Shown piece after piece: positions 8,340-63,641 of a DNA stretch of 64,000 nucleotides. Positions within the stretch are counted from its first letter, which is position 1, and the number at the start of each line of letters is the position of its first letter. Below the pieces are notes generated by a model. That model did not search any database. It was not told the origin of the DNA and was given only the letters and a program-made list of their open reading frames with translations. The translations under genes were made by a program, and so were the position numbers. This DNA is from Eledone cirrhosa (Eukaryota): NCBI GenBank assembly GCA_964016885.1, contig OZ024746.1, positions 16,926,001 to 16,990,000 of the forward strand. The letters are read 5' to 3'.

Positions 8340-9509
8340 TTTTTCCCATTCTCACCATCCTACTACCTACCTATCTGGTTCTATGTCTGTCTCTACATTT
8401 TATGAAAAGTATTTACAACAAAATATCAAAGTTTATCAACTTAACTTTCTATATTTACTCAATCTTTCTTTTTACAAACATGTTGCAGTAGAATTGTTTC
8501 ACAGTTTATTTGTAACATCTGCACCACCACAGCCTTCAACCATCCCTGTATTTTACTGACAATCACCACCATTTAAGAAAATGTTAAATAAAACAAAACA
8601 TTGTTTTAGAGAAAGGATTTATATAAAGAAAACAGATTTTTATGAAATTTTATCAATAGACAGCTTATGTTGCCAAGCCCCCTCAATATTTTTGCAAAAC
8701 CTTGGAGTTCCTACCATTTGTAAAACACTATTTTAAAGGATTCTTCATGAAAAAGTGTCTTATAGTCAAAAGTAAACTCCATTGTTTATTCAGAGGTCTA
8801 TCTCCTCCAAAGAGGAATAGCTTAAAGATAGAGACAGCATTCTTTTTATGTACACAGTAAAGTACGAAGCAAAAACCATTGTATTTTTGCTTATCTCATG
8901 ATTGAAATATACTTGTGTGCATGCATACACCCCACTTGTGCTTTCATATGCATTAGTGCAGGCATGTATATCTTACATTGATACACACATTTGTGCCTAC
9001 ATACACACATACACAGATACACACAGTCATACCCACAAGCCAACAAATCAATGGAGACAATGAAAATGTTTGATGTTCACTCAATTACTTAATGGAAAAC
9101 AATTTTACTCTGACTGTTGAAGTGAAAATTGCTAATATAATCAGATTTGCTTCCATCTTGAAATAATCACATCTCCCTTCATTTCTTCCACTGGATTATT
9201 ATTATCGTTATTATTATTATTATTGTTGTTATCATCATCATCATCATCATCATCATCATCGTTGTTATTTCTTTGTTATTTTTATTTCAAATGTATCCAA
9301 CTGCCATCTCTCTTTCCTTTAAAAGATACATGGCAGGTTTGTCTGTAAATATCATGTTTTATTCAAGTTTTATCCAATTTTTTTTTCCGGTACTAAAATG
9401 AACTTTTTCTCCAAGTAGATTTGACTGATTGTTTTTTTTTAATTTCCCCAAGGTATATTTAATAATAATGATTATTATTATTGCCAAAAGTAGAAACAAT
9501 TATTATTAT

Positions 9510-9703
9510 TAATAATTGTTTCTACTTTTGGCATAAGGCCAGTAATTACCCAGTACATTACTGGTACTTTATTTTATCGACCCCGTAAGGATGAAAGGCA
9601 AAGTTAACCTCGGCGGGATTTGAACTCAGAATGGCAAGGGCCGTAACTTTATGCGTCAAAGCATGGCGTCCGACGCCTCTACCGATACTGCCAATCCACC
9701 GCC
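9510..9703 (-). mobile_element. Young Deu/Nin-type SINE, minus-strand copy
   Basis: CpG-rich and nearly identical to the reverse complements of 9772-9954 and 63034-63225. Confidence 0.9.
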
Positions 9704-9771
9704 CTATTATTATTATTATTAATAATAATAATAATACTGATGAGAACATCATCAACAATGACAACAAATCA

Positions 9772-9954
9772 GTGGATTGGCAGTATCGGTAGGTCGGACG
9801 TCATGCTTTGACGCATAGTTACGGCCCTTTCCATTCTGAGTTCAAATCCCGCCGAGGTCAACTTTGTCTTTCATCCTTACGGGGTCGATAAAATAAAGTA
9901 CCAGTAATGTACTGGGTAATTGCTGGCCTTGTGCCTAAAGTAGAAACAATTATT
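9772..9954 (+). mobile_element. Young Deu/Nin-type SINE, plus-strand copy
   Basis: A-box-like tggcagtatcgg, B-box gagttcaaatcc, core actttgtctttcatccttacggggtcgataaaataaagtaccag, tail gccttgtgcctaaagtagaaacaattatt. Confidence 0.9.
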
Positions 9955-10028
9955 GAAATAATTTCCTATTTTTAAAAGGTAGCTCATCTTCAATTTTATT
10001 TATTTTTTCATATTAAAGATAATGAATG

Positions 10029-10612: not shown

Positions 10613-10678
10613 TGCTAGCATGGAACTAGATTAGATATATATAGAGAGATAGAAAGATGTTTAGATAGATAGATATAT

Positions 10679-11606
10679 TTCTTTATTAGCCACAAGGGCG
10701 CACAAGAAAAGGGGACAAAACAAAGACATGCCGGGGATTTTACATATAATCGTGTAAAAAAATATAAAACAAACAATTATAATAATCGAAATCCCCAATG
10801 GGGGGAGGCGCCACAAATGGGTTGTTTAATACCCCGTCGATAGAACAACCCTCAACTTCAGGAGCGTGTTGTGCAAGTGCTCCTTTCTTCCTTTTGCTCT
10901 CTTCTTCAACCTACAGGTTTATATACAGAGAAGGCCCAATCACTCAGGCCATTTTTTCCATATTCACCCACCTTTCAGTAAATTTACTGGGGTGCAGTGC
11001 CTCTCTCGCCATTCTGATTCCTCTTCTAAAGTGGTATCTAAAGAAGGGAATGAGTTGTTGTCCGGAGAGAAAGGCATCTGTTCTCAGTCCTCTAAATCTT
11101 GTCCATCATATAACCTCTTTCACCATAGCCACTATACAGAGGAAAACCGCCTCTCTTTCGTTTTTGAAAGAAGTTGGCGGTTTGATCCTTACTATGGACT
11201 CGGCAGTCAACTGGATTTGTCCCATATGTGACAGCAGTTGTTCCGCATAGTTCCACAGGTCGGTTATGTCCGGGCAGTGTACAATTGCATGCTGGATGGT
11301 TTCAATGTCCTGCGCGCATCTTGGACATGTCCTCTTGGAAGGATCCCTGCCGGGGCGTCCGTGCCTGTAGATTTTGTCACAAACTGGTAGAGCTCCTCGG
11401 TAGCACTGCCAGGCCAGGGACCTCTGGAAGTTGTCCATAGGTCCTGGGCGGAAAGTCCTACCAAACAGACTGGTGAGCTCATCGTCTTCGACGCCCAGAG
11501 TCTCACCGAGCATGCCGTCGCCCTTGTAACGTACAATCCCTCTATAGTATGTCAAAGTGGAGTCTCCACTGATTGCTGTGCCCGCTTGCCAGAGGACTGT
11601 AAGCGC
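10679..11606 (-). mobile_element. 5'-truncated L1/Tx1-clade LINE (ORF2 C-terminal zinc knuckle plus 3' UTR)
   Basis: ORF 11106-11555 contains CPRCAQDIETIQHAIVHC (CCHC zf-RVT type). aataaa lies at the 3' end. Flanked by a near-duplicated tagatagatagatatat target. CpG-rich. Confidence 0.85.
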
Positions 11607-14849: not shown

Positions 14850-15080
14850 GATGACGTCACTAACCAGTGACCAACCCAAGGACGTGCAAAGCAGATGAAG
14901 GTGGACGATATAGGCTTGTAGGGCCAGAAAACCCCAGAAAGAGGATATGATCTGAAATCAATAGACGTGTCTGAGAAACCTGCGAGACTAGAGTCAGGTA
15001 GATCCACACATGGATCACACCGCGAGCTGTTCACCAGGGAAACAATTGTAACACACAATAAATTGACTTCCGATGCATCA
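14849..15080 (+). mobile_element. Possible solo LTR (232 bp)
   Basis: CpG-rich block bounded by TGATG...CATCA, with aataaa ~20 nt before the end. It lies between (TA)n and (CT)n tracts, and no TSD is visible. Confidence 0.4.
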
Positions 15081-15865: not shown

Positions 15866-15884
15866 TTTTTCTTTCTGGGAGAAG

Positions 15885-16110
15885 AAATCGGCTGTGTTCA
15901 GACCCGGAAGTCCGTATTGTATTGCAATTTATCATTTGGTCTGTTAAATCGTGTCCGTTAAACTGTGTTTGTGTGTGTATGTATATACCGCCAACGTCAT
16001 GGAACCCCTGAACCGTATGTCTATTCCGTCCGATCGAGATAGAGGTAGCCAGTTATAAGAACGAGCCGCGCGAACAATGATTGCATCCAACGGGACCGTG
16101 GAACGTTTAT
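15885..16110 (+). promoter_or_regulatory. CpG-enriched candidate promoter and first exon
   Basis: Local CpG excess in non-repeat-looking sequence, ETS/GABP motif CCGGAAGT at 15904-15911, Kozak-like gccaacgtcATGG at 15999, and donor-like C|gtatgt at 16014/16015. Confidence 0.55.
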
Positions 16111-16501
16111 GTGACTCACTGTGATTCTTTCTAAATATAATATATTTTGGAATAAATACTTTATTTGTGTCGCTGGTCGATTATTAAACAGTGGGTCAGT
16201 TTTACAATCGTAATTGAACTCACGATTATTTTAGTATTATTGTTATTCTCGAGGACACTGAAAAAATCAAGTTAAATTGCTGCAAGCTGGACTCAGTGCT
16301 GTATGAGTTCCCTCCCTTACATAGATTCGTTTTTTTTTTGTTTTTTTTTTTTTTAATGCGTAGAATGACCTACCGAATTTATTCAATTGAATGTTATGTC
16401 AAATAGCCTTTATTTGTTTTTTGGCAGGTGGGGTGGGGGTATGTGTTCATTTAATTTCAATAATCTCCGTTAGTCATAACTTACTGTTTAATTTTCCACA
16501 G

Positions 16502-16533
16502 CAAAGAGCTAAAGCATAAAGACTTATTGATAT
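16502..16533 (+). other. Candidate 32-nt exon 2, probably 5' UTR
   Basis: Acceptor ttaattttccacag and donor AT|gtaagt. Joined to exon 1 it gives only MEPLNPKS*, i.e. a uORF. Confidence 0.5.
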
Positions 16534-17293
16534 GTAAGTGCTCGATTTTAAAATCAGATATTTGTCTGAAGGTCTTATTGTATTTACAAATGTGAGGGAT
16601 TCCAAACGCAGAAAACATCTGTAATAAGTCAATCTCTATTGATAATAGTTAAGAAAAATCAATGGCGATGCCGCAGCATGGCCTCAGCTGAAACATGTAA
16701 CAGAGTAATAATTTACATTTAGAGATGGAAAAGGAAAAAAAGTGGACAGAAGTACCTACGAGGAATTGAACCCCTTACTTCTCAAATACCATGCAAGTGT
16801 ATCACCATTATGCTAACACTTCATTAATTCATAAGGTTTATTGATTTTGAATCATCATCATTTTTGTGTCAACTTCTCCATGTACATGGGTTGTACAAGG
16901 CTTGTACAAGTCTGTTGCTATCTCGCCTGTTGCACCTCCTGATGCTAACCTACACTTTATTTCCAAGTATGGTATCTACTGCTGACTATTATCGATCAGC
17001 TAACTGTGGGACATATTATTTACATGGCACATAAATAAATGTCACCACAACATATACAGTGACTTTCTCACTCCCCCTCCTCTCTCTCTCTCTCTCTCAT
17101 TCCTAAAACATTGGTCAGTGTAAAGCTATAGTTCAAGTCACACACTGAAGGTGCCATATGGCAGAATTGAACCACTTCCTTACAAAACCAATTTATTAAC
17201 CACACATCCATGCTTATATAAAGCCATAAGGGAAGCAATAGTTGGTTAAATTAACTCTAGTGCATGATTGATACTATTATATTGACTGTAGTA

Positions 17294-18584
17294 CGAGGGG
17301 GGATCAAAAAGTTTGCGAAATTTTTCAGAAAATATTCTATTTTTCAAAAAATATGATTTATCTTCAATTTAGTTTTCTACATAGTTGCCATCCAGGTCAA
17401 TACACTTCACAAGGCGATGCTTCCAGCTTCGTAAGCCATCTCTAAAGAAAGTTGAAGGCCTTGTTCAAAGCCATGTGTTGGCAGTGTTTTTAGCTTCTTC
17501 AACACCACTAAAACGAGTTCCTTTTAGCATTTCTTTGAGTTTTGGAAAGAGGAAAAAGTCTGATAGGGCTAAATCTGGACTATAAGGCAGGTGAGGAAGC
17601 ACTTCCCATCGAAATTCTCAAAGAACTTATTTTGCAACCCGCGCAGAATTCGCTGGTGCATTGTCATGATCAAACAAGATCCCACCATGAAGTTTCCCTT
17701 TTCGTTTCTTGACTAATGCCTCTTTCAGCTTCCTTAAAACATTTCCATAGTAAGCTCCTATCACAGTTCTTTGACCTTCAAGATAATCTATTAGTATCAC
17801 CCCATCTGATTCCCAGAAAATGGTGGCCATCACTTTTTGATTCGACTTTTGAAATTTGAACTTGATTGGCCCCGATGATCCACGTGGAAGCCACTGTTTT
17901 GACTGTTGTTTGGATTCAGGATCATACTGGTAGATCCAGGTTTCATCTCCGGTGAGGATTCTGGTCAGGAAATGCTCTTCATCAACTTCAATGTTGTTTA
18001 ATATTGCCAAAGTCAGATCACTTCGAAGAATCAGCTGATCAGGGCGCAACGCTTTTGGGACCCATCGCGCTGAAAGCTTGCTTAGTCCCAAATTATCGTG
18101 CAGAATTGAATTTGCCGAACCATATGAAATGTCTAGGGACTTAGCTAACTGATTAACTGTTATTCTTTGATCTTCTTCAATTAAAGTCTGAGCAGCCTCA
18201 ACGTTTTGGTCATCTTTTGATGTTCCTGGTCGTCTTCAAGGTCGTCTCTCCCTTGTTTGAATCGCTGAATCCATTTGTAGACAGCAGTTTTCTTTGGAGC
18301 AGTAGTACCGTAAACTTTAACTAAAGCCTCCATAATCTGTGTCCCTTTCCATTTGAGTTTCACCAGAAACTTGATATTCGATCTTATCGCAAAATAACTA
18401 TTTTCCATTGTTCCAAAAAGAGGTTTTTTAAAGAGTGTCAGTACTGTACAATAGTCCGCGCATAACTGACTGCAAGTGACTGTAAGGTAAACACCCAGTA
18501 ACAATGTTCTGACATGTTTAATATTGTTTTAACCTATTTTTTTCTTACTACGATAAAATTCCCAAACTTTTTGATCCCCCCTCG
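17294..18584 (-). mobile_element. Full-length mariner transposon (DD34D, irritans/Hsmar2-like), 1291 bp
   Basis: TIRs cgaggggggatcaaaaagtttg / caaactttttgatcccccctcg, with TA duplication at 17292-17293 and 18585-18586. Confidence 0.95.
17369..18408 (-). pseudogene. Mariner transposase, disrupted
   Basis: MENSYFAIRSNIKF...ARWVPK...TGDETW...HDNAPA...YSPDLALSDFFLFPKLK...DGNYVEN*, with frameshifts and stops. Confidence 0.92.
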
Positions 18585-18628
18585 TAGAATGAACAGAAAA
18601 TATTGGCTTACAACAGGTGGAATTAAAT

Positions 18629-21600
18629 ACTGTAATGTATCTAGTCTGGCCCTCTCTGTACTCTGTTACACCACTGTAATGTAACTAGTCTGGCTCTCTC
18701 TCTACTCTGTCACACCACTGTAATGTAGCTAGTCTGGCCCTCTCTCTACTCTGTTACACCACTGTAATGTATCTAGTCTGGCTCTCTCTCTACTCTGTCA
18801 CACCACTGTAATGTATCTAGTCTGGCCCTCTCTCTACTCTGTCACACCACTGTAATGTAGCTAGTCTGGCCCTCTCTCTACTCTGTTACACCACTGTAAT
18901 GTATCTAGTCTGGCTCTCTCTCTACTCTGTCACACCACTGTAATGTATCTAGTCTGGCTCTCTCTCTACTCTGTCACACCACTGTAATGTAGCTAGTCTG
19001 GCCCTCTCTCTACTCTGTTACACCACTGTAATGTATCTAGTCTGGCTCTCTCTCTACTCTGTCACACCACTGTAATGTATCTAGTCTGGCCCTCTCTCTA
19101 CTCTGTTACACCACTGTAATGTATCTAGTCTGGCCCTCTCTCTACTCTGTTACACCACTGTAATGTAACTAGTCTGGCCCTCTCTCTACTCTGTTACACC
19201 ACTGTAATGTAACTAGTCTGGCCCTTTCTCTACTCTGTTACACCACTGTAATGTATCTAGTCTGGCCCTCTCTCTACTCTGACACACCACTGTAATGTAG
19301 CTAGTCTGGCCCTCTCTCTACTCTGACACACCACTGTAATGTATCTAGTCTGGCCCTCTCTCTACTCTGACACACCACTGTAATGTAACTAGTCTGGCTC
19401 TCTCTCTACTCTGTTACACCACTGTAATGTATCTAGTCTGGCCCTCTCTCTACTCTGTTACACCACTGTAATGTAACTAGTCTGGCCCTCTCTCTACTCT
19501 GTTACACCACTGTAATGTAGCTAGTCTGGCCCTCTCTCTACTCTGTTACACCACTGTAATGTATCTAGTCTGGCCCTCTCTCTACTCTGTTACACCACTG
19601 TAATGTAGCTAGTCTGGCCCTCTCTCTACTCTGTTACACCACTGTAATGTATCTAGTCTGGCTCTCTCTCTACTCTGTCACACCACTGTAATGTATCTAG
19701 TCTGGCTCTCTCTCTACTCTGTCACACCACTGTAATGTATCTAGTCTGGCCCTCTCTCTACTCTGTCACACCACTGTAATGTAGCTAGTCTGGCTCTCTC
19801 TCTACTCTGTCACACCACTGTAATGTAGCTAGTCTGGCCCTCTCTCTACTCTGTCACACCACTGTAATGTAGCTAGTCTGGCCCTCTCTCTACTCTGTCA
19901 CACCACTGTAATGTAGCTAGTCTGGCCCTCTCTCTACTCTGTCACACCACTGTAATGTAGCTAGTCTGGCCCTCTCTCTACTCTGTCACACCACTGTAAT
20001 GTAGCTAGTCTGGCCCTCTCTCTACTCTGTCACACCACTGTAATGTAGCTAGTCTGGCCCTCTCTCTACTCTGTTACACCACTGTAATGTATCTAGTCTG
20101 GCTCTCTCTCTACTCTGTCACACCACTGTAATGTATCTAGTCTGGCTCTCTCTCTACTCTGTCACACCACTGTAATGTATCTAGTCTGGCCCTCTCTCTA
20201 CTCTGTCACACCACTGTAATGTAGCTAGTCTGGCTCTCTCTCTACTCTGTCACACCACTGTAATGTAGCTAGTCTGGCCCTCTCTCTACTCTGTCACACC
20301 ACTGTAATGTAGCTAGTCTGGCCCTCTCTCTACTCTGTCACACCACTGTAATGTAGCTAGTCTGGCCCTCTCTCTACTCTGTCACACCACTGTAATGTAG
20401 CTAGTCTGGCCCTCTCTCTACTCTGTCACACCACTGTAATGTAGCTAGTCTGGCCCTCTCTCTACTCTGTCACACCACTGTAATGTAGCTAGTCTGGCCC
20501 TCTCTCTACTCTGTCACACCACTGTAATGTAGCTAGTCTGGCCCTCTCTCTACTCTGTCACACCACTGTAATGTAGCTAGTCTGGCCCTCTCTCTACTCT
20601 GTTACACCACTGTAATGTAGCTAGTCTGGCCCTCTCTCTACTCTGTTACACCACTGTAATGTATCTAGTCTGGCCCTCTCTCTACTCTGTTACACCACTG
20701 TAATGTAACTAGTCTGGCTCTCTCTCTACTCTGTCACACCACTGTAATGTATCTAGTCTGGCCCTCTCTCTACTCTGTCACACCACTGTAATGTAGCTAG
20801 TCTGGCCCTCTCTCTACTCTGTCACACCACTGTAATGTAGCTAGTCTGGCCCTCTCTCTACTCTGTCACACCACTGTAATGTAGCTAGTCTGGCCCTCTC
20901 TCTACTCTGTCACACCACTGTAATGTAGCTAGTCTGGCCCTCTCTCTACTCTGTCACACCACTGTAATGTAGCTAGTCTGGCCCTCTCTCTACTCTGTTA
21001 CACCACTGTAATGTAGCTAGTCTGGCCCTCTCTCTACTCTGTTACACCACTGTAATGTATCTAGTCTGGCCCTCTCTCTACTCTGTTACACCACTGTAAT
21101 GTAACTAGTCTGGCCCTCTCTCTCTACTCTGTCACACCACTGTAATGTATCTAGTCTGGCTCTCTCTCTACTCTGTCACACCACTGTAATGTATCTAGTC
21201 TGGCCCTCTCTCTACTCTGTTACACCACTGTAATGTATCTAGTCTGGCTCTCTCTCTACTCTGTCACACCACTGTAATGTATCTAGTCTGGCCCTCTCTC
21301 TACTCTGTTACACCACTGTAATGTAACTAGTCTGGCTCTCTCTCTACTCTGTCACACCACTGTAATGTATCTAGTCTGGCCCTCTCTCTACTCTGTTACA
21401 CCACTGTAATGTAACTAGTCTGGCTCTCTCTCTACTCTGTCACACCACTGTAATGTATCTAGTCTGGCTCTCTCTCTACTCTGTCACACACCACTGTAAT
21501 GTAACTAGTCTGGCTCTCTCTCTACTCTGTCACACCACTGTAATGTAACTAGTCTGGCTCTCTCTCTACTCTGTTACACCACTGTAATGTATCTAGTCTG

Positions 21601-23055
21601 GCCCTCTCTCTACTCTGTTACACCACTGTAATGTAACTAGTCTGGCTCTCTCTCTACTCTGTTACACCACTGTAATGTAACTAGTCTGGCCCTCTCTCTA
21701 CTCTGTTACACCACTGTAATGTAACTAGTCTGGCTCTCTCTCTACTCTGTCACACCACTGTAATGTATCTAGTCTGGCCCTCTCTCTACTCTGTCACACC
21801 ACTGTAATGTATCTAGTCTGGCCCTCTCTCTCTCTGTCACACACCACTGTAATGTATCTAGTCTGGCCCTCTCTCTCTACTCTGTCACACACCACTGTAA
21901 TGTAACTAGTCTGGCCCTCTCTCTCTACTCTGTCACACACCACTGTAATGTAGCTAGTCTGGCCCTCTCTCTACTCTGTCACACACCACTGTAATGTATC
22001 TAGTCTGGCCCTCTCTCTACTCTGTCACACACCACTGTAATGTAACTAGTCTGGCCCTCTCTCTCTACTCTGTCACACACCACTGTAATGTAGCTAGTCT
22101 GGCCCTCTCTCTACTCTGTCACACACCACTGTAATGTATCTAGTCTGGCCCTCTCTCTACTCTGTCACACACCACTGTAATGTATCTAGTCTGGCCCTCT
22201 CTCTACTCTGTCACACACCACTGTAATGTAACTAGTCTGGCCCTCTCTCTCTACTCTGTCACACACCACTGTAATGTATCTAGTCTGGCCCTCTCTCTAC
22301 TCTGTCACACACCACTGTAATGTAACTAGTCTGGCCCTCTCTCTCTACTCTGTCACACCACTGTAATGTAGCTAGTCTGGCCCTCTCTCTACTCTGTTAC
22401 ACCACTGTAATGTAGCTAGTCTGGCCCTCTCTCTACTCTGTCACACCACTGTAATGTAACTAGTCTGGCCCTCTCTCTACTCTGTCACACCACTGTAATG
22501 TAGCTAGTCTGGCCCTCTCTCTACTCTGTCACACCACTGTAATGTAACTAGTCTGGCCCTCTCTCTACTCTGTCACACCAGTGTAATGTAGCTAGTCTGG
22601 CCCTCTCTCTACTCTGTCACACCACTGTAATGTAGCTAGTCTGGCTCTCTCTCTCTACTCTGTCACACCACTGTAATGTAGCTAGTCTGGCCCTCTCTCT
22701 ACTCTGTTACACCACTGTAATGTATCTAGTCTGGCCCTCTCTCTACTCTGTCACACACCACTGTAATGTAGCTAGTCTGGCCCTCTCTCTACTCTGTTAC
22801 ACCACTGTAATGTAACTAGTCTGGCCCTCTCTCTACTCTGTTACACCACTGTAATGTATCTAGTCTGGCCCTCTCTCTACTCTGTCACACACCACTGTAA
22901 TGTAGCTAGTCTGGCCCTCTCTCTACTCTGTCACACACCACTGTAATGTAGCTAGTCTGGCCCTCTCTTTACTCTGTCACACACCACTGTAATGTATCTA
23001 GTCTGGCCCTCTCTCTACTCTGTCACACACCACTGTAATGTAGCTAGTCTGGTTC
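18629..23055 (+). repeat. 44-bp minisatellite, ~100 copies
   Basis: Unit actgtaatgta(t/g/a)ctagtctggc(c/t)ctctctctactctgt(t/c)acacc; 46-48 bp variants cluster after ~21830. Confidence 0.98.
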
Positions 23056-26861: not shown

Positions 26862-27011
26862 TGGTGTAGTGTTGGAGAATTTCAGGAAGCATGGAGGTTT
26901 TAAAGGATGCAGTGTCTCGGCAGCTAACGACTGATGCAGGTAGTTTGTTCCATGGAGGTTTTAAAGGATGCAGTGTCTCGGCAGCTAACGACTGATGCAG
27001 GTAGTTTGTCC
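26862..27011 (-). mobile_element. CR1/L2-like LINE 3' end with internal 61-bp tandem duplication, inserted in a piggyBac-like MITE
   Basis: Minus strand reads WNKLPASVVSCRDTASFKTSM (WNxLP...FK motif). 26890-26950 is repeated at 26951-27009. Confidence 0.75.
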
Positions 27012-28019
27012 CTTGAGGTGGTATGTTATGAAAAGGGTTAAAAAGTGTCAGCTACCTTATACCGACATATAAAAACTACTTAAAGATGCTGCTGATGCTG
27101 ATGATGACTGTTTTCACACTACTGTTCTCTTGCTTATCAGTTCAGTTATCAGTTAATTAGGGTCCCTTTTTCTGTCACACTGCCATGGCTTTGTCAGATT
27201 GCTGTAGAAAATTCCAATTTCATGGTCTGACAATTATTTCCATTATGCAATCAGTGAAATAACTACGTGGCAAAAAATAGGGGAAGAAGAAAAAGAAGAA
27301 TTTTTATATCTTCTGAAATTGTTTGATATCACAACATAGCTTTGGCTTAGACAGCAAATTGGTGGAATTGTTAAAGCAATAACACACAGCAAGCATTTTA
27401 AGGCCAATTTTCTTGCTAAAACAGAGGTTAGCCTTGATGGATCCCACCAAAGGCTTTATACTCATCGTAGGGTCCTTTTTTGAGGTAATGTTTTATAGCC
27501 AGATGTCCTTTTTAGTACTGTCCTTTATAGTACTGTCCCTTTTAATGGCTTCTTTCAGAGTGACTAAAAATTAAAAAAGACAACAAAAAAAACTGGCACC
27601 AGCACTCAATACTGGAGGGTAGAGTGCAACAATTTATTTTCTAAATAGAAAAGTGTTAGAGACTTCAAAGTTTCAGGCTGGTCACTTCATCTGGTTATGC
27701 ATGATGATGATGATGATGATAGATCCTCTGTTGATTTCTTTGATTAGCATCCAATTGAATGATTCCGTAGAATAGATGAAGGAAACAGTGCTCTATGCAA
27801 TATACAGAGCTGGAATGTTATAGTATAGTTATCTTCAACAAGGTTTTGTTGCTACCATTAGTTTGCATTCAGTTTAGATTGTGTGTTTGTACTCAACATG
27901 CGAGACCTTCATTCAGGCAACTATAAAATAAAGATGGCTGATGTTATTTGTATGAGATCTTGTGTGTGTGTATATATATATATAAACCAACATTATTATT
28001 TTATATGTATTCTATATGT

Positions 28020-28115
28020 TTGTTTTTCCTTTTCTCTTTACTTCCAGGTAAGTTAGCATTTTGGCAGAAAGATCTTTGGTTATTTACTCTATTTTCTACT
28101 GTTCCATTGGTGAGT
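28020..28115 (+). other. Candidate recursive splice site with 62-nt cryptic RS-exon
   Basis: ttgtttttccttttctctttacttccAG|GTAAGT (junction 28047/28048), then a second donor ttG|GTGAGT at 28110. Confidence 0.65.
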
Positions 28116-28267
28116 ACCAATTTACCATATCATGTTCTTCTGTCTTCCCTGCTATCCCCTTGGTCAGTACAGCTTTCCTATGACAGAGGTTCTTAAACAT
28201 ATTTTGTCACAGAGTCCCTATATGATTTTCCATAAACCTCAGAACTATTACATGATTTCCCAAAGAC

Positions 28268-36840: not shown

Positions 36841-38572
36841 TTTTGTATTATAGTACCAGGGATAGTTTGTATTGTAGTACCAGGGATAGTTTGTATTGTA
36901 GTACCAGGGATAGTTTGTATTGTAGTACCAGGGATAGTTTGTATTGTAGTACCAGAGATAGTTTGTATTATAGTACCAGGGATAGTTTGTATTGTAGTAC
37001 CAGGGATAGTTTGTATTGTAGTACCAGGGATAGTTTGTATTGTAGTACCAGGGATAGTTTGTATTATAGTACCAGGGATAGTTTGTATTGTAGTACCAGG
37101 GATAGTTTGTATTATAGTACCAGGGATAGTTTGTATTGTAGTACCAGAGATAGTTTGTATTGTAGTACCAGGGATAGTTTGTATTATAGTACCAGGGATA
37201 GTTTGTATTGTAGTACCAGGGATAGTTTGTATTGTAGTACCAGAGATAGTTTGTATTGTAGTACCAGGGATAGTTTGTATTGTAGTACCAGGGATAGTTT
37301 GTATTATAGTACCAGGGATAGTTTGTATTGTAGTACCAGGGATAGTTTGTATTGTAGTACCAGGGATAGTTTGTATTGTAGTACCAGGGATAGTTTGTAT
37401 TATAGTACCAGGGATAGTTTGTATTGTAGTACCAGGGATAGTTTGTATTATAGTACCAGGGATAGTTTGTATTGTAGTACCAGGGATAGTTTGTATTGTA
37501 GTACCAGAGATAGTTTGTATTGTAGTACCAGGGATAGTTTGTATTGTAGTACCAGAGATAGTTTGTATTGTAGTACCAGGGATAGTTTGTATTGTAGTAC
37601 CAGGGATAGTTTGTATTGTAGTACCAGAGATAGTTTGTATTGTAGTACCAGAGATAGTTTGTATTGTAGTACCAGGGATAGTTTGTATTGTAGTACCAGG
37701 GATAGTTTGTATTGTAGTACCAGAGATAGTTTGTATTGTAGTACCAGAGATAGTTTGTATTGTAGTACCAGGGATAGTTTGTATTGTAGTACCAGAGATA
37801 GTTTGTATTGTAGTACCAGGGATAGTTTGTATTGTAGTACCAGAGATAGTTTGTATTGTAGTACCAGAGATAGTTTGTATTGTAGTACCAGGGATAGTTT
37901 TTATTATAGTACCAGGGATAGTTTGTATTGTAGTACCAGGGATAGTTTGTATTGTAGTACCAGGGATAGTTTGTATTGTAGTACCAGGGATAGTTTGTAT
38001 TGTAGTACCAGGGATAGTTTGTATTGTGGTACCAGGGATAGTTTGTATTGTAGTACCAGAGATAGTTTGTATTATAGTACCAGGGATAGTTTGTATTGTA
38101 GTACCAGGGATAGTTTGTATTGTAGTACCAGGGCTAGTTTGTATTATAGTACCAGAGATAGTTTGTATTGTAGTACCAGGGATAGTTTGTATTGTAGTAC
38201 CAGGGATAGTTTGTATTGTAGTACCAGGGATAGTTTGTATTGTAGTACCAGGGATAGTTTGTATTGTAGTACCAGGGATAGTTTGTATTGTAGTACCAGG
38301 GGCAGTTTGTATTGTAGTACCAGAGATAGTTTGTATTGTAGTACCAGGGATAGTTTGTATTGTAGTACCAGGGATAGTTTGTATTGTAGTACCAGGGATA
38401 GTTTGTATTGTAGTACCAGGGGCAGTTTGTATTGTAGTACCAGAGATAGTTTGTATTGTAGTACCAGGGATAGTTTGTATTGTAGTACCAGGGATAGTTT
38501 GTATTGTAGTACCAGAGATAGTTTGTATTGTAGTACCAGGGATAGTTTGTATTGTAGTACCAGGGGCAGTTT
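36841..38572 (+). repeat. 24-bp minisatellite, ~72 copies, inside a piggyBac-like MITE
   Basis: Unit tagtaccag(g/a)gatagtttgtatt(g/a), running into the MITE end ggggcagtttcaggatagtttggtatcaaaag. Confidence 0.97.
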
Positions 38573-41317: not shown

Positions 41318-41467
41318 ATGGGTGTATATGAAAGCATATACTATAAGTTTCTATACAATAAACATATGGTAATCTCGCTATTAAAGAAAAATATTTTTTT
41401 GTAACAAAACAATTATTTTTCTTTCTTGTTCTGTGAACATGTCACAGAATGCACGCAACCGGTAATT

Positions 41468-42930
41468 TTGGTTGGTCAGTGGGTCATTGGTGTTTGGTTG
41501 GTTAGTGGGTCATTGGTGTTTGGTTGGTTAGTGGGTCATTGGTGTTTGGTTGGTTAGTGGGTCATTGGTGTTTGGTTGGTCAGTGGGTCATTGGTGTTTG
41601 GTTGGTTAGTGGGTCATTGGTGTTTGGTTGGTCAGTGGGTCATTGGTGTTTGGTTGGTTAGTGGGTCATTGGTGTTTGGTTGGTCAGTGGGTCATTGGTG
41701 TTTGGTTGGTTAGTGGGTCATTGGTGTTTGGTTGGTTAGAGGGTCATTAGTGTTTGGTTGGTTAGTGGGTCATTGGTGTTTGGTTGGTCAGTGGGTCATT
41801 GGTGTTTGGTTGGTTAGTGGGTCATTGGTGTTTGGTTGGTTAGTGGGTCATTGGTGTTTGGTTGGTTAGTGGGTCATTGGTGTTTGGTTGGTCAGTGGGT
41901 CATTGGTGTTTGGTTGGTTAGTGGGTCATTGGTGTTTGGTTGGTCAGTGGGTCATTGGTGTTTGGTTGGTTAGTGGGTCATTGGTGTTTGGTTGGTTAGA
42001 GGGTCATTAGTGTTTGGTTGGTTAGTGGGTCATTGGTGTTTGGTTGGTCAGTGGGTCATTGGTGTTTGGTTGGTTAGTGGGTCATTGGTGTTTGGTTGGT
42101 TAGTGGGTCATTGGTGTTTGGTTGGTTAGTGGGTCATTGGTGTTTGGTTGGTTAGTGGGTCATTGGTGTTTGGTTGGTTAGTGGGTCATTGGTGTTTGGT
42201 TGGTTAGTGGGTCATTGGTGTTTGGTTGGTCAGTGGGTCATTGGTGTTTGGTTGGTTAGAGGGTCATTAGTGTTTGGTGGGTCATTGGTGTTTGGTTGGT
42301 TAGTGGGTCATTGGTGTTTGGTTGGTTAGTGGGTCATTGGTGTTTGGTTGGTTAGTGGGTCATTGGTGTTTGGTTGGTCAGTGGGTCATTGGTGTTTGGT
42401 TGGTTAGTGGGTCATTGGTGTTTGGTTGGTTAGTGGGTCATTGGTGTTTGGTTGGTTAGTGGGTCATTGGTGTTTGGTTGGTTAGAGGGTCATTAGTGTT
42501 CGGTTGGTTAGTGGGTCATTGGTGTTTGGTTGGTTAGAGGGTCATTAGTGTTTGGTTGGTTAGTGGGTCATTGGTGTTTGGTTGGTCAGTGGGTCATTGG
42601 TGTTTGGTTGGTTAGTGGGTCATTGGTGTTTGGTTGGTTAGTGGGTCATTGGTGTTTGGTTGGTTAGTGGGTCATTGGTGTTTGGTTGGTTCGTGGGTCA
42701 TTGGTGTTTGGTTAGTCAGTGGGTCATTGGTGTTTGGTTGGTTAGTGGGTCATTAGTGTTTGGTTGGTCAGTGGGTCATTGGTGTTTGGTTGGTTAGTGG
42801 GTCATTGGTGTTTGGTTGGTTAGTGGGTCATTGGTGTTTGGATGGTTAGTGGGTCATTGGTGTTTGGTTGATCAGTGGGTCATTGATGTTTTGTTGGTCG
42901 GTGGGTCATTGGTATTTTGCTGGTCAGTGA
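41468..42930 (+). repeat. 26-bp G/T-rich minisatellite, ~56 copies
   Basis: Unit ggttggt(t/c)agtgggtcattggtgttt; period 26 (41479 to 41505). Confidence 0.97.
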
Positions 42931-42994
42931 AAGAGCAAAGCAATAAGATAAAGGGTCTATGATCAAAATAATAAGTAAAGCTCAAGTGAAAATA

Positions 42995-43523
42995 ATATTG
43001 GACTACAATCTTATAGATCTAACATAATATGGGACTACCATCTTATAGATCTAACATTCCAATATTGGACTACCATCTTATAGATCTAACATTCCAATAT
43101 TAGACTACCAACTTATAGATCTAAAATTATAATATTGGACTACCACTTTATAGATCTAACATTATAATATTGGACTACCATCTTATAGATCTAACATAAT
43201 ATTGGACTACCACTTTATAGATCTAACATTATAATATTGGACTACCATCTTATAGATCTAACATAATATTGGACTACCATCTTATAGATCTAACATAATA
43301 TTGGACTACCACTTTATAGATCTAACATTATAATATTGGACTACCATCTTATAGATCTAACATAATATTGGACTACCACTTTATAGATCTAACATAATAT
43401 TGGACTACCACTTTATAGATCTAACATTATAATATTGGACTACCATCTTATAGATCTAACATAATATTGGACTACCACTTTATAGATCTAACAATATTAG
43501 ACTACCACCTTATAGATCTAACA
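42995..43523 (+). repeat. 32/35-bp minisatellite, ~16 copies
   Basis: Unit aatattggactacca(tc/ct)ttatagatctaacat(tat). Confidence 0.95.
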
Positions 43524-43981
43524 TGCCATTCCAATGCAGGAGGGGTTCTCTTGAATCTCTCAGCTGTAATTGGGAATATATTGAGGATCACATGAGTGTT
43601 AGCTGTGATAGATTGGCATGCTATCTAATCATGATTCCAATGACACATGTGAGGACCAGATATCAATTCAAGATCTTGTTTCAGCTGTCCACCTTGTTGT
43701 TTACACCATTCTGGGAAGGACTTTCATGTGACTGTATTGTCAATGTGTTTGCCTAACTATGTGATAGGCACCATATAAAAACAACTTTTACAAAAAATCT
43801 TTTCTCAAATGCTGGCTGCAACCAGCATTACAAACTAATACTAACCAAGCTCAGTGTCACAGTCATCTGATAGACTGTGAACTAGTTTTGATTCCAATAG
43901 CAGACACTATATATGTAAGGATCAGATATCAATTCAAGTTGTGGCTTATTTATATTAATTCATGTTTTCAGCTGTCCACTA

Positions 43982-44850
43982 TCATTTACACTATCCCAGA
44001 AGGGGCTGTGATAAAACCCTCATTTACATCATCCCAGAGGGACCCATGATGTGATTATCATTTACACTATCCTGGAAGGGGCCATGATATGACCCTCATT
44101 TAGACTATCCCAGAAGGGGCTGTGATGTAACCCTCATTTACACTATCCCAGAAGGGGCTGTGATATGACCCTCATTTACACTATCCCAGAAGGGGCTGTG
44201 ATATGACCCTCATTTACACTATCCCAGAAGGGGCTGTGATGTGACCCTCATTTACACCATTCCAGAAGGGCCCATGATGTGATTATCATTTATACTATCC
44301 CAGAAAGTCCCATGATGTGATTAGCATTTACACCATCCCAGAAGGGGCTGTGATGTAACCCTCCTTTACACTATCCCAGAAGGGGCTGTGATGTAACCCT
44401 CCTTTACACTATCCCAGAAGGGGCTGTGATGAAACCCTTATTTACACCATCCCAGAGGGGCCCATGATGTGATTATAATTTACACTATCCTAGAAGGGGC
44501 CATGATATGACCCTCATTTACACCATCCCAGAAGGGACTGTGATGTAACCCTCCTTTACACTATCCCAGAAGGGGTTGTGATGTAACCCTCATTTACACT
44601 ATCCTAGAAGGATCCATGATTTGATTATCATTTACACTATCCTAGAAGGGCCCATGATATGATTATCATTTACACTATCCTAGAAGGGCCCATGATATGA
44701 TTATCATTTACACTATCCTAGAAGGGCCCATGATATGATTATCATTTACACTATCCTAGAAGGGCCCATGATATGATTATCTTTCACAGCATCTCAGAAG
44801 GATCCATGATGTAACCCATTTACACCATCCCAGAAGGGGTTGTGATGTGA
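43982..44850 (+). repeat. 38-bp minisatellite, ~23 copies, two unit types
   Basis: catttacactatcccagaaggggctgtgatatgaccct and catttacactatcctagaagggcccatgatatgattat; period 38 (44173 to 44211). Confidence 0.95.
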
Positions 44851-45556
44851 CTACTCTGCAGATGAGTTTGTCTAACCATATGATATGCATCTTACAAAAG
44901 ACATTTTTTTAAAAATCTTTTCTCCGAGGTTTGATATTTGAGATAGAATTGGGCTATTTTAAATGATAAACTAGTTTTTGTTGTTGTTATTGTTTTTTTT
45001 CACCATTTTGTGTTCTTTTGTGTTCTTTGTCTACTAAATATAGTATTACATTATAAACATAAACTGGCTTTAGTTGTAACTGGGGTTGTATTACTACTCT
45101 AGTTAGACTGGGTGGGTGTCTGGTGTAGGGGAATTCAGTAGGAACCAAATTTGATAGTGACAGTAGTTTCTGTTACAGTTTTATCTAGAAATGGTGTTGT
45201 TGTTGTTGCGTTTAACTGTTATATTTACATAAAATGATGGGGGTGTTTTCTTCTTTCAATCTCTGAAAATTCTCTTCTACTTAAATATAGCAGTAACTCT
45301 TAATATCCTGAACCACATGAAACCACATTAGCACTACAACTTAATTACGCTAAAAATTAGTCTTTACTCTAATATTGCAAATTTTCACCAGTAAAGGTAT
45401 TATAAACATTTGAATGAACAAACCAGCTTTTCTATATTTTCTGCTACAGGGTGTTAAGAGTTAATTCTATGCTTCAATTTGGGAACGACTATGGCTTTCT
45501 GTATAAAGATTTCTGACATTTATGGAAGAAATTATAAAACAAGATAAATTAGTCTT

Positions 45557-48020: not shown

Positions 48021-48801
48021 TGTATGTGTGTATATATATATATATGTATGATAGCTGTTACAGAACATAACCAAAAGGAGCCGGTTGTTAAGCGTGCATT
48101 GTTAACGTACATAGACACATATAATCAACGAACCTAGCTTTGTTACAATCTGGTTATATAGTAGTAGCGGTGGTTGTGGTGCTAGTAGTAGTAGTGGGGG
48201 CTTTTAATTTGACACAAGGCCAGCAATTCAATCAACATCTCTCTCATCAAATTGCTGGCCTTGTGCCTTAATAATAATGGGCTCTAATTTTGGCACAAAA
48301 CCACCAGTTTGGGAGGAGGTGAAAGTTGATTATATCAACCTCAGTATTTGACTGGTACTTTATTTTATCAACTTTGGAAGGACGAATGACAAAGTTGATT
48401 TGAACTCAGAACATGAAGATGGAGTAGATATTTTCTTTGATGCTCTAACAATTCTATCAATTACCTGATCAAGATAATAACAATGATAAGCACAAGGCCA
48501 GAAATTGAGTGGGGTGGTCTGTTGATTACATTGACCCCTTCCCCAGTACTTGATTGGTACTTTATTTAATTGACCCTGGAAGGTTGAATGGCAAAGATGA
48601 CTGTAGTCAGATTTGTAAAGAGCTGTAAAACTTTTTCTCTGATGTTTTACCATTTCTGCCAATCCACTAACCTTGATAACTACAATAACAACAGCAACAG
48701 CAATGTTAAACACAAAAGACACATTTCTATTTTACACTCAACTCTCTCCTATAATTACCTTTCCTTCTTCCCCTTCTCTCTCTCTCACTCACTCTCTCAG
48801 C

Positions 48802-49652
48802 ATTCCTTCATTCACAATAAAATTTCAATATACCAACTCATATAACACCATATGTTGGTACCTTTTGATATTTTCATATACATAGATACATGAGTTATAA
48901 TACTGCTAATCCTTTCAAAGTAGGCCCTTTCTACTTTCACGCAATTACCTTAAACCTAGCCCTAACCCAGCAATCTTTCCTCTGTTCAACTCACATTTGA
49001 AAGATTTTTACTAGAATGGCTCTCGGATCCACCACTGCAGTCTGTCTGATACCCTGTTAGCTCTCAAAGAAGTTAGGAGGAGTCATGTCTGGAAAGTAAA
49101 GAGCCTGCTGAATCAGTGAATGCCTTTCTTTGCCAATAAATTTTGGATCAGTTGTGATAAATGAGCCAGCATTGTCATGATGCAGCTGCCAGTTTTACGA
49201 AGCCTACAGACCTGGTTTCTTGGTACCGACTTCATGATGGTACTCCTTTGTAACTGTTTGTCTTTTTGGGTGTGTATTTATGATACACAATGCTTTGGTA
49301 GCTTAGCCTGTTGGTTGAAGCAGCTTACTGAGGTATGGCTACTGGGCTGCGCAATCAATTAACTAGATGTCATGGGTAAGAGTTGCAAGGCAGTCCGAAA
49401 CCAAAGTCTTCTAGTTACTCTTGAAGGGTGAGAACACAACTGCTATTTGACAGAGGTGCTCTCCATGAAACAAACACACACACACACACACACTTATAGT
49501 TATATGTATTTACACATATCCACACTATGACATACACACAAACTGATACACATACACCTTTCATAGACAGTTATATATTCATGCATATACATTTCATATT
49601 TTGATAGACATAGACATAGTTTTAAACAATCTCTCTCTCTCCCTCCCTCCCC

Positions 49653-49717
<65 letters not shown>

Positions 49718-50617
49718 CCTCTCTCTCTCTGACACATGCACAATTTCAAATAATTAATTTCGATTGAAATTTTGTTCTTTGCGCCCTCTGCCCTGCCTGC
49801 CAAAATCATTTAATTACCAAGTGCCAAAGATGTCATTGGTATTTAAAAAGAACATTCTTCCCACCTCTGCCCCAACCACCTGCAGACAAGCATCTGTGTT
49901 ATTTCCTATGACTTTAACCCTTTTGATACCAAACCACCTGAAATGACCCCCTGGGTTTATGTTTATTTTAAAGTGTTAAGTTATATTCCAAACACCAATA
50001 TAATGAGAAAGTTAGTTACATTACTAAATCCCCTCAAATTCTTGATTATTTTAAAAATCAATTGAAAATCAAATTAGAAATATGAATCGAGTGACATGTC
50101 CTTGAGCAAGACACTTTATTTCATTTCATTCAGCTGTGGAAAATGAGTTGTACTTGTAATTCATCATGCTTTTCTCAGCTTGCATGTGTTTGATGAATTT
50201 TCTCCGGCACAACTTTCTTTTACTTGTCACCTTCCTTCATCATATCTTCTGTGAGGTTCAGCATTCTGAGATCAGCTCTCATTACCCCCCCACCCCTCTC
50301 TCTCTCAAGGGATTCCTTCATTCACAATAACATTTCAATATACCAACTCATATAACACCATATGTAGGTACCTTTTGCTATTTTTATAGACATAGATACA
50401 TGAGTTATAATGCTGCTAATCCCTTCAAAGTAGGCCCTTTCTACTTTCACACAATTACCTTAAACCTAACCCCAACCCAACAATCCTTCCACTGTTCAAA
50501 TCATATCTGAAATGTTTTTACTAGAATGGTTCTCAGATCCACCACTGCAGTCTGTCTGATGTCCTGTCACCTCTCAAAGAAGTCAGAAAGAGCCACTTCT
50601 AGAGAGTATGGAGCCTG
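48802..50617 (+). repeat. ~305-bp direct repeat pair (48802-49107 and 50312-50617)
   Basis: attccttcattcacaataa...taccaactcatataacaccatatg...ccactgcagtctgtctgat...ctctcaaagaag...gagcctg in both copies, moderately diverged. Confidence 0.9.
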
Positions 50618-50819: not shown

Positions 50820-50917
50820 ATATTTTCTTTTTGGTTTTATTTCTAGGTAAGAAAATGTCAGTTTTTCCCTGTCTCTTCTGTGTGTCACCCCAAGATTATG
50901 ACCTTGACATGGTCAGA
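50820..50917 (+). other. Candidate recursive splice site with 65-nt cryptic RS-exon
   Basis: tattttctttttggttttatttctAG|GTAAGA (junction 50846/50847), then a weaker donor ATG|GTCAGA at 50912. Confidence 0.55.
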
Positions 50918-58170: not shown

Positions 58171-59099
58171 TGTCAGCCAACTATGGTTATGCTTAGCATC
58201 ATTGGGTTGGTTGGGTGTTGGAACGTGGAGGTACAAATTGACAAAAGACCTTGCAGTGTATATTCTGGTTTCTTGCATTCTGAATTCAAATTTTGCCACT
58301 GTTAGATTTACCATTCTTCTTTCCAGCCTAAGTTAGTGAACTAATGAAATAATGTTGGATGGGACACTTTTAGTATTTGTTCTGTTTTCCCCTTCAGTTC
58401 AAGTCCTACACTATAGCCTATTTAAGGAGTAGATTTAATCACTCACCTGGTCCTTGGGTGCTTTTAGTAGGGTCTACCCTGTTGTGAGCATTTGGGTTAG
58501 GTCTTCTATTTCAGGATACCTTCCTTCTCTCCTGAAGTCTTGAGAAGTTTCATAGGCACTCTCCTTCCTCCTGAAGTCCTCAGTGATTGAAAAAGAAGCT
58601 GGTAGTGGTCTTTCTCATGACATCAAATGCGTGGTGCTTGATGGCCACACCACTTTACTGAAAATGTTTCTGTCTATATAGACGTAAATAGATAACTGAG
58701 TAATACAGCTTGTCAGAACAAGTTGTCAGATAAACATTGTAAAATATATGAAATGATTTGTTAGTTTGATTTCATTATTTAACCCTTTCATGATCATATT
58801 TGTAATGAAATGCACTCTATTTTAATTCTGAGAGATTTACTAATAGAATTATTTCATTGCTACAATAACAACTTAACTTATGGTTCTTATATAAAATGAT
58901 GCTAGACGATTTTAATTTCCTGTTTTGGTAATTTTACTAGGTTGACGTAGCCCAGTTACTCAGCAGGAAAAGAAAATCATCCATGTTTTCCCCCTCTCAC
59001 TAACTAAAGATGCTATAAGACTCATTCTAAAACTTGATTACATCTTATAACACAAGTGGATTAATGAGGGCATGAGTTAAGATGATACTAAATTGCTAA

Positions 59100-60223
59100 C
59101 CTTAACCATCATCACTGTCCCCCAACTTAGGCCCCTAAAGGCACTTGTGATCCTGGCCTTCAGATCGTCTTTCGTATTGCCGCTAGATCTGTTGGTGTCT
59201 CGTTCCACTGCGCCCCACACAAAGAAGTCAAGGAGGTTACAGTCAGGCGAGCTGGGAGGTCAGATGTCAGGTGAAGTGTGGTCGACAAAGTCCCCTGACA
59301 GCCAAGCTTGGGTCTTTTGGCTGGTACGGCAGGGCGCTGAGTCTTGCTGCCACACATACGGCCTACCTGCAGCTACCTGGTCGATCCAGGGCTTTACTAC
59401 CTCGCTCAGAACGCGGATGTAGCCATCGGTGTTCAGCTTGAGGCCCTCAGGGAAGAAGTGAGGTGGCATGATGTCACTTTGACTGCTGACGACACCTAAG
59501 AGCAATGTTGTCGCTGGAAACTTTGTCTGCATGACTCTGGGCACGTCTTTGGATGAGACAGCGAGTCACCTGTTGTTCTGGGAGTTGATCTTCTGGTCTT
59601 GGCAGAAGTTTTTCTCGTCGGAGAAAAACCACAGCATGTCTGGCTCCAGTGGGTGTTTCAACTTGTTGATCAGCTTCTTTACGTGCTTCAGTCGCTTTTC
59701 TTGCATTGTCTTTGACAGAAATTGTCCTTTCCTCATCTTGTATGAAACATAGTGAATATCTTCATGTACCACCAGCCTAATGAGCTTTTTATCCACGCCT
59801 TTCTCCCTTGCAATGGCACGCATCGACTTGCTAGGTTCATTGTTGATGATATCCTGAACTTCAGCGACAAACTCGGGCATTCTGAAGGCGTCAGATCGTT
59901 GATCATGTGTTTTCCTCTCTGATGTTGCTTCGTAGTCGAATCCTGAATCTTCCAATTCCTTTCTGACCTTTTCCACCATTCTCCTGCTGACGCTGAAAAA
60001 GTCTGAAATTTCCTTATTTGTCCTCCCGGCGCGGATTCCAAGAAGAACTCCGTGTCTCTTCCACAAATTTGGAGGTTCAAAATTATTCATAATGAATTAT
60101 TCTGAAAATAAATAATGGAAATATAATCACTGTTTTTATGAAGACAAGAGTGACAACGGAAGTAAAATAAATTTGCATAAAATTAGCAGTTGAAAATTGT
60201 GAACAAATATCGTCCACACCCTG
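59100..60223 (-). mobile_element. maT-family (DD37D) Tc1/mariner transposon, 3'-truncated; transposase from 60090 with two in-frame TGA stops
   Basis: FSDEKNF ... QQDSAP-(37 aa)-SSPDCNLLD-FFVWG. The 5' TIR starts TA-CAGGGTGTGGAC at 60223. No matching second TIR was found. Confidence 0.9.
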
Positions 60224-61171: not shown

Positions 61172-61690
61172 GCCACCACCACCACCAACACCACCACCAC
61201 CAACAACACCACCACCACCACCACCACCACCACCAACACCACCACCACCACCACCAACACCACCACCACCACCACCACCAACACCACCACCACCACCACC
61301 ACCACCACCAACACCACCACCACCACCACCACCACCACCACCACCACCGACACCACCAACACCACCACCACCACCAACACCACCACCACCACCAACACCA
61401 CCACCACAACCAACATCACCAACACCACCACCAACACCAACACCACCACCACCACCAACACCACCACCACCAACACCAACACCACCACCACCAACACCAC
61501 CACCACCACCAACACCACCACCAACACCACCACCACCACCACCACCACCACCACCACCAACACCACCACCACCAACATCACCACCACCACCACCACCACC
61601 ACCAACATCACCACCACCACCAACACCACCACCACCAACACCACCACCACCACCACCACCACCACCACAACCAACATCAACAACATCATC

Positions 61691-61724
<34 letters not shown>

Positions 61725-62890
61725 CCACCACCAACATCATCATCATCACCACAACCAACACCACCACCACCACCAACATCATCACCACCACCACAACCAA
61801 CATTACCACCACCACAACCAACATCATCATCACACCACCACAACCAACATCATCATCACACCACCACAACCAACATCACCACCACCACCACCAACATCAT
61901 CACCATCACCACCATCACCACCACCACCAACATCATCATCACACCACCACAACCAACATCACCACCACCACCACCAACAACATCATCACCACCACCACCA
62001 CCAACATCACCACCACCACCAACACCACCACCACAACCATCACCACCACCAACAACAACATCACCACCACCACCACCAACATCACCACCACCACCACCAC
62101 CACCACCAACATCATCATCACCACCACCACCAAAATCATCACCACCACCACCAAAATCATCACCACCACCACCAAAATCACCACCACCACCACAACCAAC
62201 ATCACCACCACCACCACAACCAACATCACCACCACCACCACAACCAACATCACCACCACAACCAACATCACCACCACCACCACAACCAACATCACCACCA
62301 CCACCACAACCAACATCACCACCACAACCAACATCACCACCACCACCACAACCAACATCACCACCACAACCAACATCATCACCACCACCACAACCAACAT
62401 CACCACCACCACCACAACCAACATCACCACCACCACCACAACCAACATCACCACCACCACCACAACCAACATCACCACCACCACCACAACCAACATCACC
62501 ACCACAACCAACATCACCACCACCACCACAACCAACATCACCACCACCACCACAACCAACATCACCACCACCACCACAACCAACATCACCACCACCACCA
62601 CAACCAACATCACCACCACCACCACAACCAACATCACCACCACAACCAACATCATCACCACCACCACCACCAACAACATCACCACCACCAACATCATCAT
62701 CACCACCCAAGCCAACATCATCACCACCACCACCACCACCACCACCACCACCACCACCACCACCACCACCACCAAGAACAACATCACCGCCACCACCATT
62801 ACCACCACCACCACCACCAACATCATCACCACCACAACCAACACCACCACCACCACCAACATCATCAGCAATAACATCATCACCATAACC
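61172..62890 (+). repeat. 1.7-kb (CAC/CAA/CAT)n array with a 15/21-bp higher-order unit
   Basis: (cac)n grades into caaccaacatcaccaccacca(c) repeats from ~62190. Confidence 0.97.
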
Positions 62891-63021
62891 ATTATCTACT
62901 TTACAACCTGTCTCCTACGTCTGATAACTGTTCCAATCTGGATTGACCCCCTCTCTTTCTATATGTGTGTATATATATGTATATATATGTATATACTCAT
63001 TTATTATTTTCTCCTGTGTAG

Positions 63022-63221
63022 GTGATGGATTTTGGTAGTGGATTGGCAGTATCGGTAGAGGCGTCGGACGCCATGCTTTGACGCATAAAGTTACGGCCCT
63101 TGCCATCCTGAGTTCAAATCTCGCCGAGGTTAACCTTGCCTTTCATCCTTACGGGGCCGATAAAATAAAGTACCAGTAATGCACTGGGATAATTGCTGGC
63201 CTTGTGCCAAAAGTAGAAACA
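63022..63221 (+). mobile_element. Young full-length Deu/Nin-type SINE with 19-bp target-site duplication
   Basis: attattttctcctgtgtag at 63003-63021 and 63222-63240; the body is nearly identical to the copies at 9.5-9.95 kb. Confidence 0.92.
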
Positions 63222-63641
63222 ATTATTTTCTCCTGTGTAGATCTGAGGGTTATGTTGTTTCACAATGTTTGTGTTATCTGACGTTTTTCTCTTCGCCCTC
63301 TCTCGTGCTGCTAATACAGATTCAGGGCTTACGTTTGGCCTCCTTTTTACCTTCTCCCTCTATCCCATTGGTTACTGCAACATGTACTATTGTCTCATGT
63401 TTCTCCCTCTCTATCGATATATTTTTCTTTTGTTTATTTTCTTTTTCTATCGCTCTCTTCGCTATCGTCTGTGTGTTTTTTTTTGTTTTTGTTTTCTTCC
63501 CTGATAACTACTCCTCTTAGTTATCAACGCACTGTGATGAGATGTACTGTCTTTAATGCGTCGAAACATCAGCGACCCTAAGCAGACAGCCAAAGAGCGG
63601 GAATTGTCCCAATGTTTGTGTTTCTCTTATGTTTTCTAAAT

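Follow-up and report, generated by a model that had tools for sequence, protein, structure and literature searches.

RESULTS

A strong acceptor abuts a consensus donor at position 28048

The window, i.e., the whole 64-kb stretch of octopod DNA analyzed here, carries on its + strand a strong 3′ splice site (Y-tract, then YAG) with a consensus 5′ splice site (GTRAGT) immediately after it, the arrangement required of a ratchet point. The sequence-only reading of this DNA had described a pyrimidine tract of about 25 nt, a CAG and a perfect GTAAGT, followed 62 nt later by a second donor. The coordinates proved exact, and the two donors enclose the segment that begins at 28048 (Table 1). The motif matches the ratchet-point consensus, (y)nncag/gtaagt (PMC2773006). 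The TTG/GTGAGT at +62 adds the nearby downstream donor that in Drosophila delimits cryptic RS-exons, about 50 nt in length (PMC8605326).

We scored the splice signals with generic, approximate metazoan matrices that are not trained on the host species. With these, the donor at 28048 ranked first and that at 28110 ranked 26th among the 4,240 GT dinucleotides of the + strand. AG/GTAAGT occurs only once on the two strands of the window, at 28048. Between −60 and −10, the only branch-point-like YTNAY sequence is TTTAT at 28000 to 28004, whose A lies at 28003 (−45); it matches weakly, a point against the ratchet reading. Folding of 27990 to 28190 revealed no special structure (z = −0.62), and the 21-nt exact junction pattern had no match in metagenome contigs, a search that is uninformative for animal DNA. 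Assuming that the upstream exon ends in CAG, AAG, GAG, ATG, or TTG, the donor recreated at 28048 would score higher (12.9 to 8.7) than the donor at 28110 (8.5), and it would score lower with the ends AAT and TTT, these being the seven ends tried.

Table 1. Splice signals and related features of the window, all on the + strand (a slash marks the junction)
Feature	Coordinates	Strand	Remarks
Polypyrimidine tract	28020..28044	+	Pyrimidines at 23/25 nt
3′ splice site CAG	28045..28047	+	Acceptor 14.9 bits, rank 3 of 3,246 AG on +
Consensus donor GTAAGT, candidate regenerated 5′ splice site	28048..28053	+	Abuts the acceptor at 28047/28048
Candidate cryptic RS-exon	28048..28109	+	62 nt, 45% T, 32% G+C
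Second donor TTG/GTGAGT, predicted RS-exon donor	28107..28115 (donor at 28110)	+	8.5 bits
AG-free zone 5′ of the acceptor	27957..28045	+	89 nt
Weaker pyrimidine-rich acceptor with terminal CAG	28131..28167	+	9.2 bits; just 3′ of the second donor
TTTCTAG/GTAAGA at 50846/50847	50820..50852	+	17.3 bits; 22.8 kb downstream; best donor after it at +136
GGCAG/GTGGGG at 16427/16428	16406..16433	+	17.8 bits; 11.6 kb upstream; GTAAGT at +106

The motif is rare by chance and stands apart from dispersed repeats

The fused acceptor-donor at 28048 scored 23.8 bits, 95.6% of the maximum, the highest value among the 370 AGGT sites of the window (193 on the + strand and 177 on the − strand). The runners-up, both on the + strand, reached 17.8 and 17.3 bits, and the best site of the − strand reached 10.8 bits; three sites on the + strand and none on the − strand scored at least 80%. 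The score of 28048 was equalled in none of 300 order-2 and none of 300 order-5 Markov sequences. With 28048 left out, the nulls, which retain the real pyrimidine runs of the window, predicted 0.002 to 0.004 sites as good in 50.7 kb on both strands, and a null specific to the + strand predicted 0.0017 to 0.0034. Of random positions, 2.5% are followed within 30 to 100 nt downstream by a donor at least as strong as that at 28110 (1.7% for GTRAGT), and the full layout including the second donor is expected by chance roughly 1e-4 times per window. As very many windows were screened, this per-window chance must be weighed against the rate of genuine sites. Under assumed rates, and with non-coding exons poorly covered, an approximate calculation gave a posterior of 0.97 to 0.99 for a ratchet point at bee, sea urchin, or fly densities and of 0.53 at a vertebrate-like density. 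It gave a chance origin less than 0.02 at invertebrate-like ratchet densities and 0.13 at a vertebrate-like density.

A dispersed-repeat origin, one of the two refuting cases set beforehand, was looked for by self-BLAST and contig depth and did not emerge. Self-BLAST picked out 88 stretches that recur within the window, and at E < 1e-4 none of them lies over 28004 to 28260; the microsatellite at 27943 to 28003, which adjoins the motif, does match elsewhere in the window. At a likeness of at least 80%, the summed depth of contigs, a quantity distinct from copy number and blind to copies of less than 80% identity, was 9 to 15 over 28050 to 28159, comparable to the lowest bins (8 to 13). It ranged from 10^2 to 10^6, even exceeding 1 million, in bins of repeats and neighboring elements, and was 21 to 32, i.e., 2 to 3 times the baseline, in the bin that holds the tract (27995 to 28049). 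This contrast argues against a dispersed repeat of at least 80% identity.

The contigs come from three public runs of one sample. In each run, an 817-base contig spans 27479 to 28262 with one differing letter and no gap, an agreement that is not independent confirmation since the sample is possibly the source of the window itself. Among the matches listed, no joint or loose end falls at 28048 or 28109; the runs look genomic, and this has no bearing on splicing.

The 62-nt segment shows no sign of a conserved coding exon

Two frames of the 62-nt segment stop within 9 nt, and the third is open for 20 codons. Such an open frame is common by chance, being present in 74% of 5,000 random 62-mers. 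As the sequence-only reading had correctly remarked, 62 is not divisible by 3, so that inclusion in a coding sequence would shift the frame. The 20-codon peptide matched no Pfam family and had no hits at E ≤ 10 among six candidates. A search of 1.84 billion representative proteins returned one match, to a tandem-repeat protein with four weak matches of about 22 bits each; we rejected this candidate (P0124) as a chance match. The query has only 20 residues, which gives these homology searches low power, and they address coding exons, not non-coding ones. A conserved protein-coding exon at 28048 to 28109 is less likely because the open-frame peptide is without a convincing homologue.

Composition of the window is consistent with a long + strand intron

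No recognizable coding or host-gene exon is present in the 64-kb window, which has no Rfam and no tRNA matches either. Its long ORFs are translations of simple repeats or transposon remnants, namely a LINE zinc-finger piece, mariner, and a Tc1-like transposase. We determined base skews within the window after masking arrays, transposons, and microsatellites. On the + strand, T exceeded A in all eight 8-kb blocks (overall skew +0.065). Two observations count against a + strand intron: the G−C skew was slightly negative (−0.045), and AATAAA is not depleted on the + strand (67 occurrences versus 75, p = 0.56). The CpG observed/expected ratio (o/e) of the window, also judged inside it alone, is 0.22. 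The gene bodies of Octopus bimaculoides, introns as well as exons, are enriched for methylated CpGs (PMC9476566). The T richness of the + strand and the low CpG fit a long + strand intron, and the motif probably lies inside such an intron, whose exons would be located beyond the window. As the window is without a host gene or flanking exon, the designation as a long intron rests on composition.

The transposon remnants lie on the − strand. A mariner element occupies 17292 to 18586, with terminal repeats at 17292 to 17326 and 18552 to 18586; its 202-codon open transposase piece belongs to Pfam PF01359, and its best match is 89% identical, although the search with it did not point to a host clade. 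The Tc1-like transposase remnant is found at 59000 to 60220. A zf-RVT domain marks the 3′ fragment of a LINE at 10640 to 11606; of its three matches, the best (55% identity, E 5.5e-51) is to a protein of Argonauta hians. Two SINE-like copies of the same element, recognized by eye, lie close together in inverted orientation at 9482 to 9962; once transcribed, the pair would fold into a long hairpin, a possible substrate for A-to-I editing. An exact 61-nt tandem duplication at 26890 to 27009 is extremely abundant in genomic contigs (summed depth above 1 million). Mini- and microsatellite arrays with units of 44, 24, 26, 32, 38, and 3 nt are located at 18629 to 23052, 36842 to 38572, 41467 to 42929, 42992 to 43524, 43982 to 44851, and 61173 to 62858; CpG is almost absent from the 44- and 24-nt arrays. 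We take this landscape of microsatellites and SINEs to be typical of octopus; together with the Argonauta match, a single line of evidence from a mobile element, it points to an octopod.

Two weaker sites share the orientation of 28048

The sequence-only reading had implied a second ratchet point. The site meant, probably the co-oriented one at 50847, is not significant alone. The site at 16428 has a poor donor hexamer and a short AG-free zone. Jointly, the two represent a marginal excess over expectation (2 seen versus 0.17 to 0.25 expected, P 0.013 to 0.027 with a post hoc threshold). Their spacings from 28048 would fit the size of fly recursive segments, 18 ± 9 kb (10.1101/006163). Each may be another ratchet point or else a small exon of the non-coding type.

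The surroundings of these sites have features of their own. A local duplication of about 320 nt (48788 to 49107 and 50296 to 50617, 1.5 kb apart) ends about 230 nt 5′ of 50847. Just 5′ of 16428, a CpG-rich patch at 15880 to 16400 stands out from the generally CpG-poor window and lies outside the self-BLAST repeats (o/e 0.83 in 16001 to 17000); together with a CRE-like TGACGTCA at 14852, it may represent a promoter or enhancer that is unmethylated. An additional AG/GT at 63022 was discarded, its acceptor being a copy of a direct repeat that flanks a SINE-like insertion, with no good donor following. This CpG-rich SINE-like element (63003 to 63241), the source of the false site, is probably a young insertion because it sits between direct repeats, each about 19 nt long, that represent a target-site duplication.

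DISCUSSION

Three splice signals of defined spacing, rarely found together, lie at 28020 to 28115 with no close dispersed copies, in 64 kb that contain no recognizable coding exon. We regard it as fairly probable from these signals that 28048 is a recursive splice site, or ratchet point, with a skipped 62-nt cryptic exon. By analogy with known systems, we infer transcription, a host intron, use of the site, and skipping. In a mechanism modeled on Drosophila, U2AF bound to the tract and CAG and U1 bound to the GTGAGT at 28110 would define the 62-nt exon. Splicing of the upstream exon to 28048 would then recreate the GTAAGT donor, which would usually outcompete the donor at 28110. The 62 nt would be removed with the next piece of the intron, and no trace would be left in the mRNA.

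This proposal, made in the sequence-only reading, holds up as far as the motif is concerned, which has all the sequence features of the Drosophila type and far exceeds local chance expectation; the skipping of the segment still has a rival in an ordinary included exon. Ordinary exons seldom open with a full consensus donor, and the composition of the segment, with its 45% T, is intron-like. The peptide without a Pfam match, for which protein searches yielded only the weak tandem-repeat match, also speaks against an included exon. We thus consider it rather unlikely that 28048 to 28109 is a small, mostly included exon (a 5′ UTR, long non-coding RNA, alternative, or poison exon) that starts with GTAAGT by chance, and whose regenerated donor would be suppressed or used at times, as in expressed RS-exons. 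With 23.4 bits, its acceptor and donor nevertheless outscore every other pair in a set of 43 candidate exons taken from the two strands, and one of its frames is open. Expressed RS-exons also predominate in mammals, with more than 6,400 potential sites versus nine fully suppressed ones (PMC8605326).

That the motif is a product of T-rich, microsatellite-rich DNA that the spliceosome ignores appears quite unlikely. The + strand is T rich, the tract comes after a (TG)n(TA)n stretch that spans 27961 to 27984, and screening very many windows will pick up rare accidental motifs. At a threshold of 80%, the density of RP-like sites on control strands is about 0.1 per 100 kb (PMC2773006), but 28048 is well past that threshold, and even nulls that retain the real T-runs rarely yield its equal, all the more so when the second donor is included. 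It is highly improbable that only the donors are meaningful, i.e., that a pyrimidine-rich exon ends at 28047 (or 28109) and an ordinary intron begins there, possibly of 120 or 58 nt up to the CAG at 28167. CAG/GTAAGT is indeed the strongest donor of the window, and an acceptor is available at 28167. However, the tract and the long AG-free zone are then left unexplained, what lies upstream, a microsatellite amid CpG-poor DNA, is not promoter-like, and past 28167 the sequence enters a 500-nt ACACC array.

As a recursive splice site, 28048 would resemble the Drosophila ratchet points of kuz, Bx, Ubx (Ubx-RP), and luna in its tract followed by CAG/GTAAGT (10.1101/006163, PMC8605326). [quoted passage not shown] Unlike them, it is found in the transposon- and satellite-rich genome of an octopod mollusc, and it is known from its sequence. 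The predicted exon definition of a donor-initial exon and the large repeat-rich intron in which it probably resides are reminiscent of vertebrate RS-sites and EJC-repressed RS-exons (PMC8605326, PMC6224609). In contrast with the skipping proposed here, mammalian RS-exons are mostly included, and few are fully skipped (PMC8605326).

Motif-level evidence with a bias to one strand also links the site to the enrichment of RP-sites beyond Drosophila, in sea urchin, bee, beetle, and mosquito (PMC2773006). That enrichment study covered 13 species, no mollusc among them, whereas we describe one strong site in one window and no genome-wide enrichment. In long introns, the RP-site ratios were 4 to 22 in insects and sea urchin and 0.9 to 1.5 in vertebrates (PMC2773006, Table 2), and the locust, whose genome is large, was reported to be vertebrate-like for ratchet points (PMC3896762). 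Large transposon-rich genomes may therefore be without ratchet-point enrichment, which lowers the prior for 28048.

Recursive splicing has been shown experimentally mainly in Drosophila, mouse, and human, according to a 2026 review (PMC13149111), in the main text of which octopus and molluscs are not mentioned. We found no relevant report of recursive splicing in octopus, mollusc, or cephalopod in mainly open literature, supplementary species tables aside. The longest genes of octopus are enriched for neural genes (PMC7222433), and we found no account in the literature searched of how such long introns are removed. It is possible, with the balance slightly against it, that octopods, their large transposon-rich genomes notwithstanding, have retained recursive splicing of the fly type, in which cryptic exons are exon-defined and skipped, and that 28048, perhaps with 16428 and 50847, is one in a series of sites dividing a giant intron into segments.

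The mechanism of recursive splicing is itself already known, and one candidate motif does not settle the question. If true, 28048 would, within the literature searched, be the first case of recursive splicing described for cephalopods or molluscs, and it would count against the idea that genome expansion swaps ratchet points for repeat pairing. With a working octopod site, molluscs would join the animals that use the mechanism, and the loss of ratchet points in big, repeat-rich genomes, reported for locust and vertebrates, would be put to the test.
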